Shown here piece after piece: positions 31,203 to 57,617 of a stretch of 64,000 nt of DNA. This stretch comes from a marine actinobacterium MedAcidi-G2B. GTDB taxonomy: Bacteria; Actinomycetota; Acidimicrobiia; Acidimicrobiales; MedAcidi-G1. The position numbers and the translations under genes were made by a program. Positions within the stretch are counted from its first letter, which is position 1, and each line of letters begins with the position of its first letter. Under the pieces are notes generated by a model, which searched no databases, was not told where the DNA came from, and saw only the letters and a program-made list of their open reading frames with translations. The DNA lies in assembly GCA_000817115.1 (NCBI GenBank), contig JUEO01000004.1, positions 1,067 through 65,066 on the forward strand, written 5' to 3'.

Positions 31203-32747
31203 ATGAATTCAGAAGTGACGCGAAAATCAAGAGACTCTCTTTATTATGTCGCGATTTCTGTTACTGCTGGAATTGTACTTTTGAATGTTTTCCTCCGATT
31301 CTTTGCTGACTCTCCCTTTTGGTTAGACGAAGCAATCTCTGCATCAATAGCGGAAAAAGGTCCAGGCGGCTTAGTGGAAGCTCTTCGTCATGATGGGCAC
31401 CCACCATTGTATTATTTGCTTCTTCACTGGTGGTCCATCATCATTGGAGATTCTGATTTTGCTCTAAGAGCGATGTCAGGAGTTTTCTCAGTCTTTTCCT
31501 TGTTTCTTATTTATCGAGTTGCTCAGAGGTTTACTGATAACTGGTTAAGGCTATTTGTTGTAGGTGTTTTAGCAAGCAGTCCTTTTGCGATTCGATATGC
31601 AACTGAAGTTCGAATGTATTCATTACTGGTTTTACTCATATTGGTCGCTCACCTTCTTATTCACAACGCATGGAGTAAGCCAACGCCCTGGAGGCTTTTT
31701 GCTGTTAGTTGTGTAACTGCAGCGTTGCTTTACACGCATTATTGGTCGTCATTCTTGATTTTGTCGTTAGGTTTGGTGCTGCTCATTGGAGTAATGCGCG
31801 GTAAAGACGAAATTGCTCAAAAAAATAAGAAGTTACTTCTTGCCGTGGTCGGAGGAGTAGCCTCTTTTCTTCCATGGCTTCCTGTCTTCATGGAACAACT
31901 AGCTCACACTGGGACACCGTGGTCAGACGCACCACGACCAACAGTAGTAGTGGCTTTAGCCTTGGAATCCTATGGAGGGGGAAGAGGATCTGAGGCCTTG
32001 CTAGTAGCAGTAGTAATAGTTGCACTGGCTACATTGGGACTTTTTTCGCGCAAACAAAGATTGGAAGAAGAGTTCGTAGTTGTTTTAGGGCAGACACAAC
32101 ACGAATTCCTCAAAATCTCTGCAGCGGTTGGAGCCTTAGCGATACTCCTAGGTGTATTAGCAAGCCTCATTTTTGATTCAGCTTTTCAGGGAAGGTATGG
32201 GGTCTTTGCATTTATTCCCATAGTTCTGGCGGTTGGAGTTGGTCTCAGCCAACTTCCGCGTCGAACAGGCATAGTTTTACTAGTTGTGCTCTCCCTAATA
32301 TCGGTAGTTTCCGTTGCGCGAGAGTTATCAAGAGATAGAACACAGATTGGTGAAATAGCCGCAAGCATAGAGAAAAATGGAACTGTTGGAGATTCGGTGG
32401 TTTTCTGTCCAGATCAACTCGCTCCGGCTGCCCACCGAGTTTTAGGGGAGGAGTTCAATCTTTATGCTTACCCCACTTTGGATAGTGGTGAAACTGTTGA
32501 CTGGTATGACTATGAACTTCGTAACGCTAATTCAGACCCAAGTGAAATCGCTGAAAGAATTCTCTCTCTGCATATTCCCGAACAATCTCTTTGGCTTGTA
32601 TGGATAGATGGATATAAAACCTTTGGTTCGCAGTGCGGAGAGTTAGAAAGAGAGCTAGCTGCTTTCTCTTCGAGCAGCAAGATCTTTGTTTCTTCAAATG
32701 GTGATGACTTTTACAACTCTGCGAATCTGACGAGATTCATGAAATGA
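31203..32747 (+). CDS. GT39/PMT-like membrane glycosyltransferase
   Basis: FWLDE, D.HPPLYY, EVRMYS, YTHYW; leaderless-type ATG 31203. Confidence 0.82.
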   Translation: MNSEVTRKSRDSLYYVAISVTAGIVLLNVFLRFFADSPFWLDEAISASIAEKGPGGLVEALRHDGHPPLYYLLLHWWSIIIGDSDFALRAMSGVFSVFSLFLIYRVAQRFTDNWLRLFVVGVLASSPFAIRYATEVRMYSLLVLLILVAHLLIHNAWSKPTPWRLFAVSCVTAALLYTHYWSSFLILSLGLVLLIGVMRGKDEIAQKNKKLLLAVVGGVASFLPWLPVFMEQLAHTGTPWSDAPRPTVVVALALESYGGGRGSEALLVAVVIVALATLGLFSRKQRLEEEFVVVLGQTQHEFLKISAAVGALAILLGVLASLIFDSAFQGRYGVFAFIPIVLAVGVGLSQLPRRTGIVLLVVLSLISVVSVARELSRDRTQIGEIAASIEKNGTVGDSVVFCPDQLAPAAHRVLGEEFNLYAYPTLDSGETVDWYDYELRNANSDPSEIAERILSLHIPEQSLWLVWIDGYKTFGSQCGELERELAAFSSSSKIFVSSNGDDFYNSANLTRFMK

Positions 32748-33841
32748 AATTTACCCAAACTAGAAGATTTCATAAAGATTTGATTTCAGTTTTCTTTGCT
32801 TGGTTTACTTCAAGAATAGTGGTTGTAGCAACTATGTGGATCACTAATTTGTTTGCATCAAGTGAGGCACGTGAGTTCAGTTCTCAAGGATTTCGATTAT
32901 GGGACGCTGGGTGGTATCAACAACTGATTTCGGGCACCTATGCGGAGTTAGGCGAAGAAGCTTTCCGTTTCTTTCCGGGGTTTGTCCTTCTCGGAAGGTT
33001 GGTCAAACCTCTTCTTGGGGGAGATGAAGTACTGGCTTCAGTGTTGATAGCGAACCTCTTCTCGCTTTGCATGTTTGCTGTTCTCTATCGGCTAGTCATA
33101 GTTGAGACAGGTAATGTCGCCAGAGCGAAAATTACAGTTTGGATGTTGGCACTATTCCCCACAGCTTTTGTTTTGGTTTGGGGTTATGCCGAAAGCTTGT
33201 TTATAACTCTGACGTTGGTCGTTTTCTTGGCTCTGAAGAAACAAAATTGGAAAATGGTGGCTCTTGTTGCCTTCTTAGCTGGTCTTACTAGACCCACAGG
33301 AGCGTTGATCGCAGTTGCTGTTGTAACTGCGTCAGGGTTTTGGAATATGGCAAGCGGTTTCAAAGGTCGTGTTGAGCGTTTAGCAGCTTTCACCGGCGGG
33401 CCGTTGGGTGTGATGGTTTTTCTGTTGTGGTCAAATTCTCAAAATGAAGAAAAATGGGTTCCCTTTACTGTCCAGGAAGAATTTCGTGGTGGTTTTGTAG
33501 ATCCGGTGCGGCGATTGGTTTCAGGTGTTAGAGAAATTTTTGCTTTGGATCCAGATGGATTGCATGTGTTATTTGCGTTTAGTTTTTTTCTTCTCTTAGT
33601 AGTTGTTTGGAAGAACCTCCCTCGACATTATTTCTTTTACGCTTTTGTTTCTTTACTGGTAGCTGTATCTGCGGAGAATCTAAATAGTTTGGAGCGTTAT
33701 GTCATGGCCGCGTTTCCATTTGTCATGGCACTAGCGGTCTTTATCGATAAGAAGAAGTTTCAGAAGGTGGTGTATCCGCTGTCAGCAGTTTGTTTAGTTG
33801 CTTGCACAGTCGCATCAGTTACGGGGCGGTACGTTCCGTAA
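32744..33841 (+). CDS. Mannosyltransferase-like (PIG-V/GT76-type) membrane protein
   Basis: WDAGWY, FFPG, YAESLF, TRPTG; ATGA overlap with the upstream gene. Confidence 0.8.
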   Translation: MKFTQTRRFHKDLISVFFAWFTSRIVVVATMWITNLFASSEAREFSSQGFRLWDAGWYQQLISGTYAELGEEAFRFFPGFVLLGRLVKPLLGGDEVLASVLIANLFSLCMFAVLYRLVIVETGNVARAKITVWMLALFPTAFVLVWGYAESLFITLTLVVFLALKKQNWKMVALVAFLAGLTRPTGALIAVAVVTASGFWNMASGFKGRVERLAAFTGGPLGVMVFLLWSNSQNEEKWVPFTVQEEFRGGFVDPVRRLVSGVREIFALDPDGLHVLFAFSFFLLLVVVWKNLPRHYFFYAFVSLLVAVSAENLNSLERYVMAAFPFVMALAVFIDKKKFQKVVYPLSAVCLVACTVASVTGRYVP

Positions 33842-33842
33842 T

Positions 33843-33930
33843 AAAAGTGGCTATAACGCGGAAACGACCCCAAGTAGCCTTCCGGCGAACCGGTTAACTC
33901 CTTGGAGTCGCTCCTAGCGTTGCGTGCCAC
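33843..33930 (-). terminator. 3'-terminal long irregular hairpin plus UUUU tract of the putative ncRNA
   Basis: gtggc(33847-51)/gccac(33926-30) closes an ~84-nt stem capped by CCGG-UUCG-CCGG, followed on the minus strand by UUUUAUU. Confidence 0.6.
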
Positions 33931-34445
33931 CGAATGAGAACTTCCTAAGAAGTACCATTCCTGAATAAAAAACTCCGAAGAGTTTATTATCCGAACATAA
34001 ATTCAACTTCTCGACAGGAGAAGAACTTATGTCTGGTAAACCGTAAACTCTCGAGAGAGTTAACTAACAGGATTCTTTTGATACCGAAGTATCTAAAGAA
34101 CCTGATTCGTTTGACACATCGAAACAAGATCCACTCAACTGTTTTTGTTGTCCGTCAACAACTTCACAGCTTTGTGCTGCAATTAAATGCAGACCTTGGA
34201 TCGACTGAGGTGCTTATTGGTTAGAGGTTGAAGTCCGAAGACTTTAACGTTCCTACCAACTCGACACCTCAGTGCCTACGGCTGACTTACTAATTCCCAA
34301 AGGAACCAGTGTGTCACGGTCCTCCCCAAACATTTAATGGAAACTTTCCCAAGAATTTGACGGTCCTCCGCTGGAACCAGCTTTCGCTTTTTCCAGGGGT
34401 GGTGTCGGTTTCGTTGGTTCCGATAACCACGCTATATTTGGCGTG
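33843..34445 (-). ncRNA. Putative large (~600 nt) structured non-coding RNA, unassigned family
   Basis: No ORF of 60 aa or more; nearly contiguous stem-loops with C(UUCG)G x3, G(UUCG)C, C(UUAG)G, C(UUUG)G and GAAA loops on the minus strand; G-U-containing helices; promoter upstream and hairpin plus U-tract at the 3' end. Confidence 0.75.
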
Positions 34446-34450
34446 AAAGC

Positions 34451-34479
34451 ATCTTGCCTGATCTTTTCTTGCGAGTCAA
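34451..34479 (-). promoter_or_regulatory. SigmaA-like promoter TTGACT-N17-CAAGAT
   Basis: Minus strand: -35 at 34479-34474, 17-nt spacer, -10 at 34456-34451 (non-canonical first base); predicted TSS about 34444. Confidence 0.6.
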
Positions 34480-34533
34480 CTCATTTTTAGGTATTCCCCA
34501 GAACTTTGGTCAATTTCCCCAAAGATTCTCTCT

Positions 34534-34553
34534 CTTTCCACATCCTGTCCACA
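34534..34553 (+). promoter_or_regulatory. Pair of DnaA-box-like sites
   Basis: ctttccaca (34534-42) and ctgtccaca (34545-53), each one mismatch from a DnaA-box consensus (TTWTNCACA; actinobacterial TTGTCCACA), 2 nt apart. Confidence 0.4.
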
Positions 34554-34583
34554 GAAAAAGATGAATTTTGGGGTTATTGAGCG

Positions 34584-34973
34584 TTAATTAACTAGTAGGA
34601 CTCCACTCAAAAGTGCACCAAGGGCAGTTAAAAGTCCAAGCGCACCCGTAGCCGCACGAAGAGGAACAGATTTTGTTCGACTATGTATAAGAGCAGAGGC
34701 ACCTGAAACAGCCACCAAGAGTAATTTGATGAACAGCGTTATTTGGTACGCAGAGTCTTTGTTTGACAACTCGATTTCAAAAATGCTCCAAATTCCGGTA
34801 ATCAAAGCAAGCAATAGAAAAGTCCAAGCAAAACGTCCAAATCTTTCTGCAGCGAGACGAGGAGCATCGGGACTGATTTTACGGAGGACTGGTACGAGAC
34901 TTACCATCAAGAGCTGTCCGCCGACCCAACCGCAAATTGAAATGATGTGTAAGAAGATGCGGGCAGTGTTCAT
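34584..34973 (-). CDS. CopD-like small membrane protein
   Basis: LHIISICGWVGG, four TM segments. Confidence 0.7.
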   Translation of the reverse strand: MNTARIFLHIISICGWVGGQLLMVSLVPVLRKISPDAPRLAAERFGRFAWTFLLLALITGIWSIFEIELSNKDSAYQITLFIKLLLVAVSGASALIHSRTKSVPLRAATGALGLLTALGALLSGVLLVN

Positions 34974-34980
34974 TTGCTGC

Positions 34981-35739
34981 TCAACTCCACAATTTTCTTT
35001 CTGTTAATATTTCCTTCAACAGGGCAGGTTTGTCTGTCATGATGCCGTCAACTCCAAGATCTATAAGTCGGTTCATTTCTGCTGGATCATCAATGGTCCA
35101 AATATGAACTTGAAGGTTTTGTTCGTGAGCGTTATCGACAAATCTTTTATCAACCAAAGTAATTCCATTTTGTTTGACAGGAACTTGAAGGCAATTGAAA
35201 TACAACTTTGCCTTGCCTATGCCAAAGTTTGAAGCTTTGAATCGTGCTACGCCTTGAGGCCCAGCAGAAACGCAAGCTTTTCCTTCCATGAGAGTTTGAA
35301 AGTGTTTTATTCTGCGATCAGAAAAAGCGCCTATGCAGACTCTATGTAGCGCACTGTGTTTTTGCAGTAAATTTGCAAGAGGTTCAACTACAGCATCGTG
35401 TTTCGGATCAATGTTTATATTTACTTGCGGAAACTCTTCAAGAACTTCTTCCAATAAAGGTATTGGATCGCTTCCGCCAACACGGGCTTGTTCGACTTCC
35501 TTCCAAGTAAGTTCAGATATCAATCCAGTTGAATCAGTTACACGATCAAGTTTTGTGTCATGGAAAGCTATGACTGTTCCATCTGCTGTGAGATGCACAT
35601 CAGTTTCGATGTATTTGTAACCCATGTCAACCGCATGCTGGAAAGCTCGAAGCGTGTTTTCTGGCCAGTTGCCAGTCCCACCGCGGTGGGCAAATGCTAA
35701 GAACGGATCAGATCCGAAATAAGAATGTTTATTATTCAC
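34981..35739 (-). CDS. Glycerophosphodiester phosphodiesterase
   Basis: AHRGG..PENT..AF, ETDV, HD..LDR, WTIDD, GVDGIMTD. Confidence 0.92.
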   Translation of the reverse strand: MNNKHSYFGSDPFLAFAHRGGTGNWPENTLRAFQHAVDMGYKYIETDVHLTADGTVIAFHDTKLDRVTDSTGLISELTWKEVEQARVGGSDPIPLLEEVLEEFPQVNINIDPKHDAVVEPLANLLQKHSALHRVCIGAFSDRRIKHFQTLMEGKACVSAGPQGVARFKASNFGIGKAKLYFNCLQVPVKQNGITLVDKRFVDNAHEQNLQVHIWTIDDPAEMNRLIDLGVDGIMTDKPALLKEILTERKLWS

Positions 35740-39501: not shown

Positions 39502-39693
39502 GTGGTGAAAAAAGGAAGACATCGCAGATTTGAAGAAGCGCGCGCACTGAAGCGTAGTGATGATTTGGATCTTGATTCAATTTTTGACAGTCTTGCCTCA
39601 GAGGAAGAAGAGGAGAATGTCTCTCCTGCGCATGCGGCTTGGGCTGACGAGTTTGAAGAAGTAGAAGAAACAGAAGAAGAAGAGGCTTCTTAA
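39502..39693 (+). CDS. Small protein with basic N-terminus and acidic C-terminus
   Basis: 63 aa; SD AGGAG; fills the gap between rnd and the ClC gene. Confidence 0.6.
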   Translation: MVKKGRHRRFEEARALKRSDDLDLDSIFDSLASEEEEENVSPAHAAWADEFEEVEETEEEEAS

Positions 39694-54893: not shown

Positions 54894-54944
54894 GGTCGCT
54901 TGCTATTAGGTGCTAGCAATCGTTCCAGATAACGTGGATATCCC

Positions 54945-55229
54945 ATGAGTAAGAAAAACACTGCAGAAGATACCGTCGGACTGTTTCAACAGTACTTACA
55001 ACAAGAACTAGTTGACCCTCTCCGCTCCTTAGGACGGTTTTTAGCCTACGGAGTCGTAGGGTCACTCCTTATAGGAGCAGGCCTGGTTCTTCTTGCGATC
55101 GGAACATTACGCGGGTTTCAAGCCGCTGAGGTATTCGAAAATTGGTGGTCTTGGGTTCCTTACATTATTTCTGCACTGGCTTTAACAGCAGCCGCTGCTC
55201 TGACTCTGAGTCAAATTAAAGAAAAATAG
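54945..55229 (+). CDS. Small 2-TM membrane protein (actinobacterial holin-like)
   Basis: YLQQELVDPL.SLGRFLAYG followed by two TM helices. Confidence 0.65.
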   Translation: MSKKNTAEDTVGLFQQYLQQELVDPLRSLGRFLAYGVVGSLLIGAGLVLLAIGTLRGFQAAEVFENWWSWVPYIISALALTAAAALTLSQIKEK

Positions 55230-55236
55230 AAACTAT

Positions 55237-55440
55237 ATGGCTAATCAAATAACTCAAGAGGATCTTGCAAAAAACTTAGGAGAAATCCTAGGCGAAACAG
55301 AAACGCGTATACCTGGAGGGAAGAACACTCTTCTTGCCGGGGCAGCACTCCTTGGTTTATCAGCTCTAACTATTGCCTATTTTCTTGGACGCAGAATTGG
55401 CCGACTCAAATCTACAACAGTTGAAATTCGCCGGATATAA
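55237..55440 (+). CDS. Small membrane-anchored protein
   Basis: One TM helix followed by YFLGRR..T.VEIRRI. Confidence 0.65.
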   Translation: MANQITQEDLAKNLGEILGETETRIPGGKNTLLAGAALLGLSALTIAYFLGRRIGRLKSTTVEIRRI

Positions 55441-57202: not shown

Positions 57203-57215
57203 GGAAAATCGAAAA

Positions 57216-57455
57216 TCAATCAGCTTCGATGAATATGCATTCACCGGGGCATTCTTCAGCAGACTCAATAGTTGCTTCTATCTGATCCTCAGGAATGGGA
57301 GCAAGTGCGTCGGCTCCACCTGGGTCGCTGAGAATGTTATCTCCATCCTTTACGTAGGCTAAACCATCATCAAGCATGGCGAATACGCTCGGAGCTATTT
57401 CTTCGCAGAGTCCGTCTCCGGTGCAAAGATCTTGATCTATCCATACCTTTAACAT
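57216..57455 (-). CDS. Single-cluster ferredoxin
   Basis: CTGDGLC...ECPGECI; SD GGAGG. Confidence 0.92.
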   Translation of the reverse strand: MLKVWIDQDLCTGDGLCEEIAPSVFAMLDDGLAYVKDGDNILSDPGGADALAPIPEDQIEATIESAEECPGECIFIEAD

Positions 57456-57617
57456 CTTTAAGATCCCTCCATCTTTAAAGTTAGTAAAAATTGATTTAAA
57501 AACTTCATCTCACTAATGATACATAATTCTCGCTAAAAGTTGTGTTCCTTAATCGTTACTTTTGTCACTAACTAAGGTAAGGTCGCGGCGAAATAGAATT
57601 GTTTCCCTGGAGGGACG

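Follow-up and report, generated by a model that had tools for sequence, protein, structure and literature searches.

Does the longest gap between the genes of this DNA encode an RNA and, if so, of what kind? The window, which is the whole 64-kb stretch analysed here, stems from the marine actinobacterium MedAcidi-G2B (class Acidimicrobiia, order Acidimicrobiales, family MedAcidi-G1). A preliminary description, made from the letters of the window, had proposed a large, structured and novel non-coding RNA at positions 33843-34445.

A stand-alone RNA gene on the minus strand

The segment 33843-34445 lies inside a gap of 742 nt, the longest of the seven gaps of more than 200 nt in the window. The preliminary description had called it the only long gap; it is indeed the longest, but six others measure 209-479 nt each. 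Gaps of more than 400 nt that lack a long reading frame are also found at 955-1382, 54894-55372 and 57203-57617. On the minus strand, the segment folds at -238 kcal/mol with a z of -10.2, and its helices are kept by compensatory change among homologues, which bears out the proposed structured RNA. For comparison, 25 other 603-nt windows folded on either strand gave -118 to -198 kcal/mol. As the plus strand of the segment reaches -208 kcal/mol with a z of -10.9, the z value alone cannot fix the strand of the RNA. The minus strand, which had been proposed before, is favoured because its folding energy is lower in all 25 distinct homologues folded, and by its UUCG/GACG loops, the promoter and an adapter junction at 34444. 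The coordinates of the RNA, its parts and its surroundings are compiled in Table 1.

Table 1. Positions of the RNA, its structural parts, its promoter region and the neighbouring genes in the window
Feature	Position	Strand	Basis or remark
Non-coding RNA, ~585-600 nt	33847..34444	-	folding, homologues, RNA contigs over 33863-34444
RNA ends	5' = A34444, 3' ~33845-33863	-	adapter junction at 34444 in one contig
-35 hexamer TTGACT, sigma-A type	34474..34479	-	sequence; conserved in homologues
-10 hexamer CAAGAT, 7 nt before the start	34451..34456	-	sequence; homologues; adapter position
Four phased boxes TG(T/G)GGA(A/C/T) at 34500, 34521, 34542 and 34553	34492..34553	-	predicted DnaA sites
5' rod, RNA 3-122, long irregular hairpin closed by 3-10/115-122	34324..34443	-	RNAalifold; minimum-energy fold of the 5' 130 nt alone
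Conserved hairpin 3' of the GGGGAGGACC linker	34289..34310	-	folding of homologues, pair alignment
Central multibranch domain	34039..34283	-	closed by 34283-34278 with 34044-34039
Three tandem hairpins, long form only	33932..34032	-	in 23, 23 and 18 of 25 long homologues; missing from short forms
3' signature hairpin	33855..33921	-	found across the order, the class and part of the phylum
CopD-like small membrane protein and glycerophosphodiester phosphodiesterase, upstream	34584..35739	-	kept in most of the family; context only
Convergent 365-aa gene, ends at the RNA 3' end	32744..33841	+	context only

Transcripts of the element are present in marine RNA libraries. Nineteen RNA runs from 12 marine studies contain 51-55% of the words of a 1-kb stretch; these runs were selected because they contain the element, and contigs give no abundance. 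Contigs cover the element in all eight runs examined (seven studies); they begin at 34427-34444 on the 5' side and stop at 33863-33924 on the 3' side. In one contig of run X12, 26 foreign letters are joined to position 34444 on the minus strand, which we take to be a template-switch oligonucleotide and hence the marker of an RNA 5' end. The junction coincides with the start predicted earlier. Between 27000 and 42000, four runs yielded almost no contig outside the element, although gaps between contigs are not evidence of level; likewise, contig depth in X12, which is not evidence of abundance, was 3-6 over the upstream genes vs 109-1310 over the element. The RNA is likely abundant. A second contig, from run X1, contains the 3' part of a short, 230-nt type of the RNA. 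Elsewhere in the window, 39655-39685 gave 31-letter matches with three mismatches to short, deep RNA contigs in two runs; this is a purine-rich repeat, and the matching RNA probably comes from another organism.

The RNA is a stand-alone gene on the minus strand with its own promoter, TTGACT-N17-CAAGAT at 34479-34451, exactly as first described. It cannot be a leader of the 365-aa gene since that gene is convergent. That it represents a real, functional RNA family is almost certain.

Homologues in the family

A DNA search of 61 genomes recovered the element in 34 of the 36 family genomes and in all seven genera; the two family genomes without it are 61% and 79% complete. Double matches turned out to be the 5' and 3' pieces of a single element. 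A 29-letter pattern gave 30 matches among 185,579 species genomes, all titled as Acidimicrobiia or Actinomycetota assemblies. The promoter defines the RNA start in 36 of 40 distinct loci, of which 25 have a long form (562-639 nt) and 11 a shorter one (231-393 nt). Shorter forms have lost whole internal modules and kept the promoter, the 5' part and the 3' hairpin. Most family loci are located behind the phosphodiesterase and CopD-like genes and face the convergent gene. In the genus with the 230-nt form (L025, L027 1-313, minus strand), the same strand carries an RNase P RNA gene some 1.2 kb downstream, past the convergent gene.

The fold is supported by pairing across homologues

Comparison with the 25 long homologues corrected the initial fold in its 5' part and upheld most of the remainder. 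The outer hairpin drawn at 34399-34430 and the hairpin drawn at 34327-34359 recur in none of the 25; instead, the 5' 122 nt form one long rod, whose helices 1-5 are 95-100% paired. A closing helix gatcca/tggatc was recovered in 3/25 and is therefore not general. In contrast, the hairpins at 34283-34316, 34204-34273, 34137-34171, 34068-34104, 33995-34032, 33963-33991 and 33932-33960 recur in 17-25 of the 25. From a long-range helix drawn with 10 bp, the six pairs of 34283-34278 with 34044-34039 stand, being 96.7% paired with compensatory changes. Further inside, the helix 34276-34272/34117-34113 (RNA 170-174 with 329-333) is 99.2% paired. The central multibranch domain is partly or wholly gone from the family members of 231-393 nt. 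The terminal stem was likewise right in its core, which recurs in 17-25/25; its outer part before the U4 run is present in 7/25, and the terminator scan did not call it. Within the 3' hairpin, 33905-33898 pairs with 33877-33870 around a one-by-one purine mismatch. This invariant core reads CCCGAG-R-AG...UACUCGGG.

A curated set of 83 pairs is 95.9% paired over the 25 long forms, with two-sided change at 38 pairs. In a shuffle control, not one of 500 shuffles equalled the alignment on four of the five measures, while 75 did so on the fifth; because the pairs were picked by inspecting the alignment, related sequences are not independent and many changes track a single split between AT-rich and GC-rich forms, this result is support and no significance test. 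For the 3' hairpin, 37 diverse copies have 17 pairs that are 96.2% paired, 10 of them with two-sided change, which 0/500 shuffles matched. A central bubble of the Ms1 or 6S kind was not found in 46 predicted folds, where the largest interior loop is 12 nt. Sequence conservation is confined to the core of the 3' hairpin: in 46 loci outside the family that have the promoter, no shared 6-mer in the RNA body rose above shuffles.

A family of variable length across Acidimicrobiia

Models of the 3' hairpin match at least 43/151 order, 37/151 class and 12/151 phylum genomes, counts that are lower bounds, with 28 candidates scored per genome. A closer look at five genomes without an earlier match recovered the RNA in one (G313), and misses therefore understate the range. 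One exact form of the core is present in 85 of 401 class genomes, as a single copy in 84 of them (control 1), and in 17 of 401 phylum genomes, 12 of which belong to one family (control 3); the order tally, the phylum hairpin tally and the class tally of 401 include genomes flagged as unpublished (G177; G327; G672, G570, G515), on which, apart from the 6S count below that involves G327, nothing else claimed here depends. Pattern matches in the phylum genomes G719, G905 and G267 were set aside, since they do not exceed the control and received no score from the model.

Outside the family, 50 of 63 loci show a TTGAC promoter pattern upstream in sense orientation, compared with 4, 2 and 1 at control positions. 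The 46 non-family loci with a promoter encode RNAs of 133-562 nt (median 250), usually with a 5' rod, a middle domain and the 3' hairpin arranged back to back, and RNA length across the whole family is 133-640 nt. The long-form profile found no middle-domain homology outside the MedAcidi-G1 family. The RNA of the window is hence an expanded member of an Acidimicrobiia-wide family with a usual size of about 250 nt and a dispensable middle, and, judged by hairpin sequence, the family is also present in some other Actinomycetota. This settles two earlier expectations. A fixed ornate RNA of about 600 nt, of the OLE/ROOL/GOLLD type, does not agree with a smaller usual size and a middle that can be lost. 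That an RNA so far undescribed in Acidimicrobiia had been met was borne out, but its class-wide reach and the box array upstream (see below) had been missed.

No partner gene travels with the RNA, and its neighbours vary across loci. In at least 22 of 64 non-family loci, the next gene on the same strand, mostly about 90-270 nt away, encodes a UvrD helicase with an HRDC domain (UvrD2-type). An assignment of this helicase as PcrA was dropped: its score of about 290 bits falls short of the cut-off of 911, and the HRDC domain is present. Viral contigs gave three loose matches of at most 17.6 bits and no strict one, so no convincing phage copy, and phages and plasmids gave no match to the RNA. In some lineages, the RNA is present as two paralogues, in tandem or divergent arrangement and with the variant core CCCCGAGAGGG...CUCCCUCGGGG (L187 700-1650 in G313, L122 850-1650 in G343, and L123 in G397); the body of one paralogue contains several repeats of CCCGAGAGGG. 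A cobalamin riboswitch lies close to one of the shortest forms (L077 196-293, minus strand).

Comparison with known RNAs

Rfam gave nothing at gathering score in the window, only two chance matches at E<10, and nothing at the RNA in the homologous loci. No description of this RNA was found in the literature searched, where supplementary lists or older ocean small-RNA surveys may hold it under another label; in the main text of PMC9130861, the word "Acidimicrob" is absent. The RNA represents a new family, outside every family tested; its presumed novelty withstood the comparison with Rfam, and the homologues show the expected compensatory changes.

As initially stated, it is not RNase P RNA, tmRNA, SRP RNA or Ms1, none of whose models match here. 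The genome has its RNase P RNA (C19) and tmRNA (C2) elsewhere, and three of four tested relatives that carry this RNA have SRP RNA at another locus. 6S, Ms1 and SRP RNA were not found in the window's genome, an assembly that is 85% complete. The small SRP RNA had no match in G000 (85% complete) and G010 (94%), while three relatives have one.

Ms1 (RF02566; mycobacteria, scr3559 of Streptomyces) comes close in several respects: it is a stand-alone RNA of Actinomycetota in the 230-300 nt class, with a 5' hairpin, a middle domain and a 3' hairpin. However, RF02566 has no match in the window's genome or at the locus in five relatives, although this model is narrow and matched only 4 of 151 phylum genomes. 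No HAD-IB hydrolase is encoded among the flanking proteins scanned, consistent with the lack of an Ms1 neighbourhood noted before, and the 3' hairpin has no match in four mycobacterial Ms1 loci. The conserved, binding-relevant part of Ms1 is its middle domain according to PMC4191392, whereas the RNA studied here is conserved in its 3' hairpin, not in a central bubble, and can dispense with its middle.

PMC11077062 proposes one abundant polymerase-binding RNA per species, with the 516-nt CoRP, reported only from Corynebacterium and located between tRNA genes, as an example. CoRP resembles the RNA of the window as a stand-alone RNA of about 500-600 nt from an actinobacterial lineage in which 6S and Ms1 were not found (PMC11077062). 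CoRP differs by its tRNA neighbourhood, as the window has no tRNA gene.

The 6S model RF00013 does not match at this RNA. Within the class, it found 6S in 0/151 genomes, while the same model found 56/151 phylum genomes, which suggests that 6S was lost at the base of Acidimicrobiia. Both RNAs can nevertheless occur together: eight of 10 out-of-class genomes with the 3' hairpin (G327 being one of the two others) have 6S on another contig, and they are therefore not exclusive. Replacement of 6S by mutual exclusion thus fails outside the class. The RNA is 6S-like in its housekeeping-like single copy, a size near that of the short forms and duplication in some lineages, but it is not a single rod with a central bubble. 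OLE, ROOL, GOLLD, MISL and the raiA motif gave no Rfam match. They are also large, hairpin-rich and multibranched without a coding role; in contrast, this RNA varies almost five-fold in length and is chromosomal and syntenic.

A phased array of DnaA-type boxes precedes the promoter

The four boxes upstream of the promoter lie 21, 42, 63 and 74 nt before TTGAC, all in a single orientation and on the same face of the helix. No other cluster of four within 120 bp exists in the assembly, which lacks the dnaA region. At least two boxes at fixed spacing precede all 36 family promoters. Elsewhere, at least two were counted in 20 of 24 other loci of the order vs 2 of 27 loci outside it (L081 excluded). 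Between dnaA and dnaN, four family genomes have 3-6 copies of the same words, so that the candidate boxes are of the type found at dnaA in the family. We take them to match the DnaA consensus as generally known. On these sequence grounds, the boxes are likely DnaA sites. MraZ is less likely as the binding protein: in the one genome inspected, the 480 nt before mraZ contain none of the box words, and the repeats there lack the GGA core. In the literature searched, no precedent was found for a phased DnaA-type array on a structural RNA.

A long hairpin at 34510-34581 (minus strand), just past the CopD-like gene, overlaps three of the four promoter boxes and may end the CopD-like transcript; it drew a chance Rfam match. 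Upstream of mraZ (G000:C26, L158 260-460), about 100 nt with phased (G/T)GG repeats are directly duplicated, apparently without a mismatch; the duplication is either real or an assembly artefact.

A putative store of RNA polymerase and its alternatives

We tentatively favour, at somewhat less than an even chance, a DnaA-timed RNA that stores RNA polymerase as Ms1 or CoRP do. DnaA would bind the phased boxes and activate the sigma-A type promoter; this activator reading is preferred because the nearest box lies at about -56 to -48, an activator position. Such control would tie the supply of the RNA to the state of replication. By analogy, the RNA may bind RNA polymerase and hold it in reserve, thereby standing in for 6S or Ms1, neither of which was found in this class. 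The invariant 3' hairpin would serve protein recognition and stability, and the 5' rod together with the expandable middle would form a stacked helical scaffold. Storage of polymerase is favoured by the housekeeping-like spread of the RNA (34/36 family genomes, single-copy core), by the failure to find 6S in any of 151 class genomes and the lack of Ms1 hits alongside an Ms1-like size and layout, and because CoRP demonstrates that homology searches can miss a polymerase-binding RNA of 516 nt. Against it stand the missing central bubble and dispensable middle, the co-occurrence with 6S in eight of 10 out-of-class carriers, and the lack of a hairpin match in the four mycobacterial Ms1 loci. In addition, the neighbouring helicase is of the UvrD2 type and not the polymerase-binding PcrA, and several Acidimicrobiia families show neither RNA in our searches (0/17 for f7 and 0/35 for f132 with the hairpin model; 0/38 genomes of f7 with the exact core form). 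The timing by DnaA is further weakened by boxes in only two of 27 loci outside the order.

It is rather doubtful, if conceivable, that we are dealing with a fourth class of housekeeping-scale bacterial RNA, ancient in Actinomycetota, 130-640 nt long, switched by a DnaA array and feeding back on the transcription or replication machinery. If true, such an RNA would tie the initiation of chromosome replication to a stored reserve of polymerase, or of another core enzyme, in slow-growing Acidimicrobiia of ocean and soil. Few large conserved bacterial RNAs still lack a name, and the present one extends across an entire class that is common in oceans and soils. It provides a concrete candidate for the abundant polymerase-binding RNA predicted in lineages without 6S and Ms1; a phased DnaA-type array upstream would link the replication state to a structural RNA. 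Built around one invariant hairpin, the lengths from 133 to 640 nt form a natural series, which shows by what route an ornate RNA can arise from a small core.

A close competitor, which we hold only slightly less probable than polymerase storage, is that the RNA serves, much as OLE or the raiA motif does, as scaffold or sponge for some protein that is not RNA polymerase and that would hold on to the invariant mismatch stem of the 3' hairpin; the multibranch domain of the long form may then allow oligomerisation or more partners. The confinement of sequence conservation to the hairpin core, with no body 6-mer above shuffles, agrees with this, as do the co-occurrence with 6S outside the class, the covarying long-range helices of the long form and the two paralogues in some lineages. 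On the other hand, no partner gene accompanies the RNA past its varying neighbours, and ornate RNAs such as OLE and ROOL are generally known to keep a fixed fold, whereas lengths here extend from 133 to 640 nt. The recurrent UvrD2-type gene on the same strand, at the distances given above, would fit an origin as a cis-acting leader or attenuator of uvrD2 with the hairpin as its terminator, lingering in the window as a detached transcript. We regard this as improbable: the family RNA has been kept, expanded and covaries while facing a convergent gene, uvrD2 is on another contig in the window's genome, in G082 it abuts its usual neighbour with no RNA in between, and a search for a leader peptide found none.

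Three further explanations are less probable still. The unique, phased box cluster with its fixed spacing would suit a datA-like site for DnaA titration, with the DNA as the working part and the RNA as a by-product; the constant distance of the boxes from the -35 hexamer, the pairing constraint on the RNA and its persistence without boxes in other orders make this very improbable. About as improbable is that the RNA is what remains of a mobile or catalytic element, for instance a group II intron. As read in the window alone, its long-range helix AGCCGUA/UACGGUU resembles intron domain V, but 18 of 25 homologues have G as the first base of the AGC triad, which is at odds with an AGC/CGC triad, and the helix is lost in short forms. 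Moreover, the RNA sits as one copy at a syntenic site with no Rfam intron, phage or plasmid match. Finally, that the transcript encodes a small protein seems extremely improbable: a GGAGG-like word is conserved at RNA 121-125, but the 36 family RNAs share no frame, their longest frames (12-154 codons) lie at unrelated places, and many indels break the frame.
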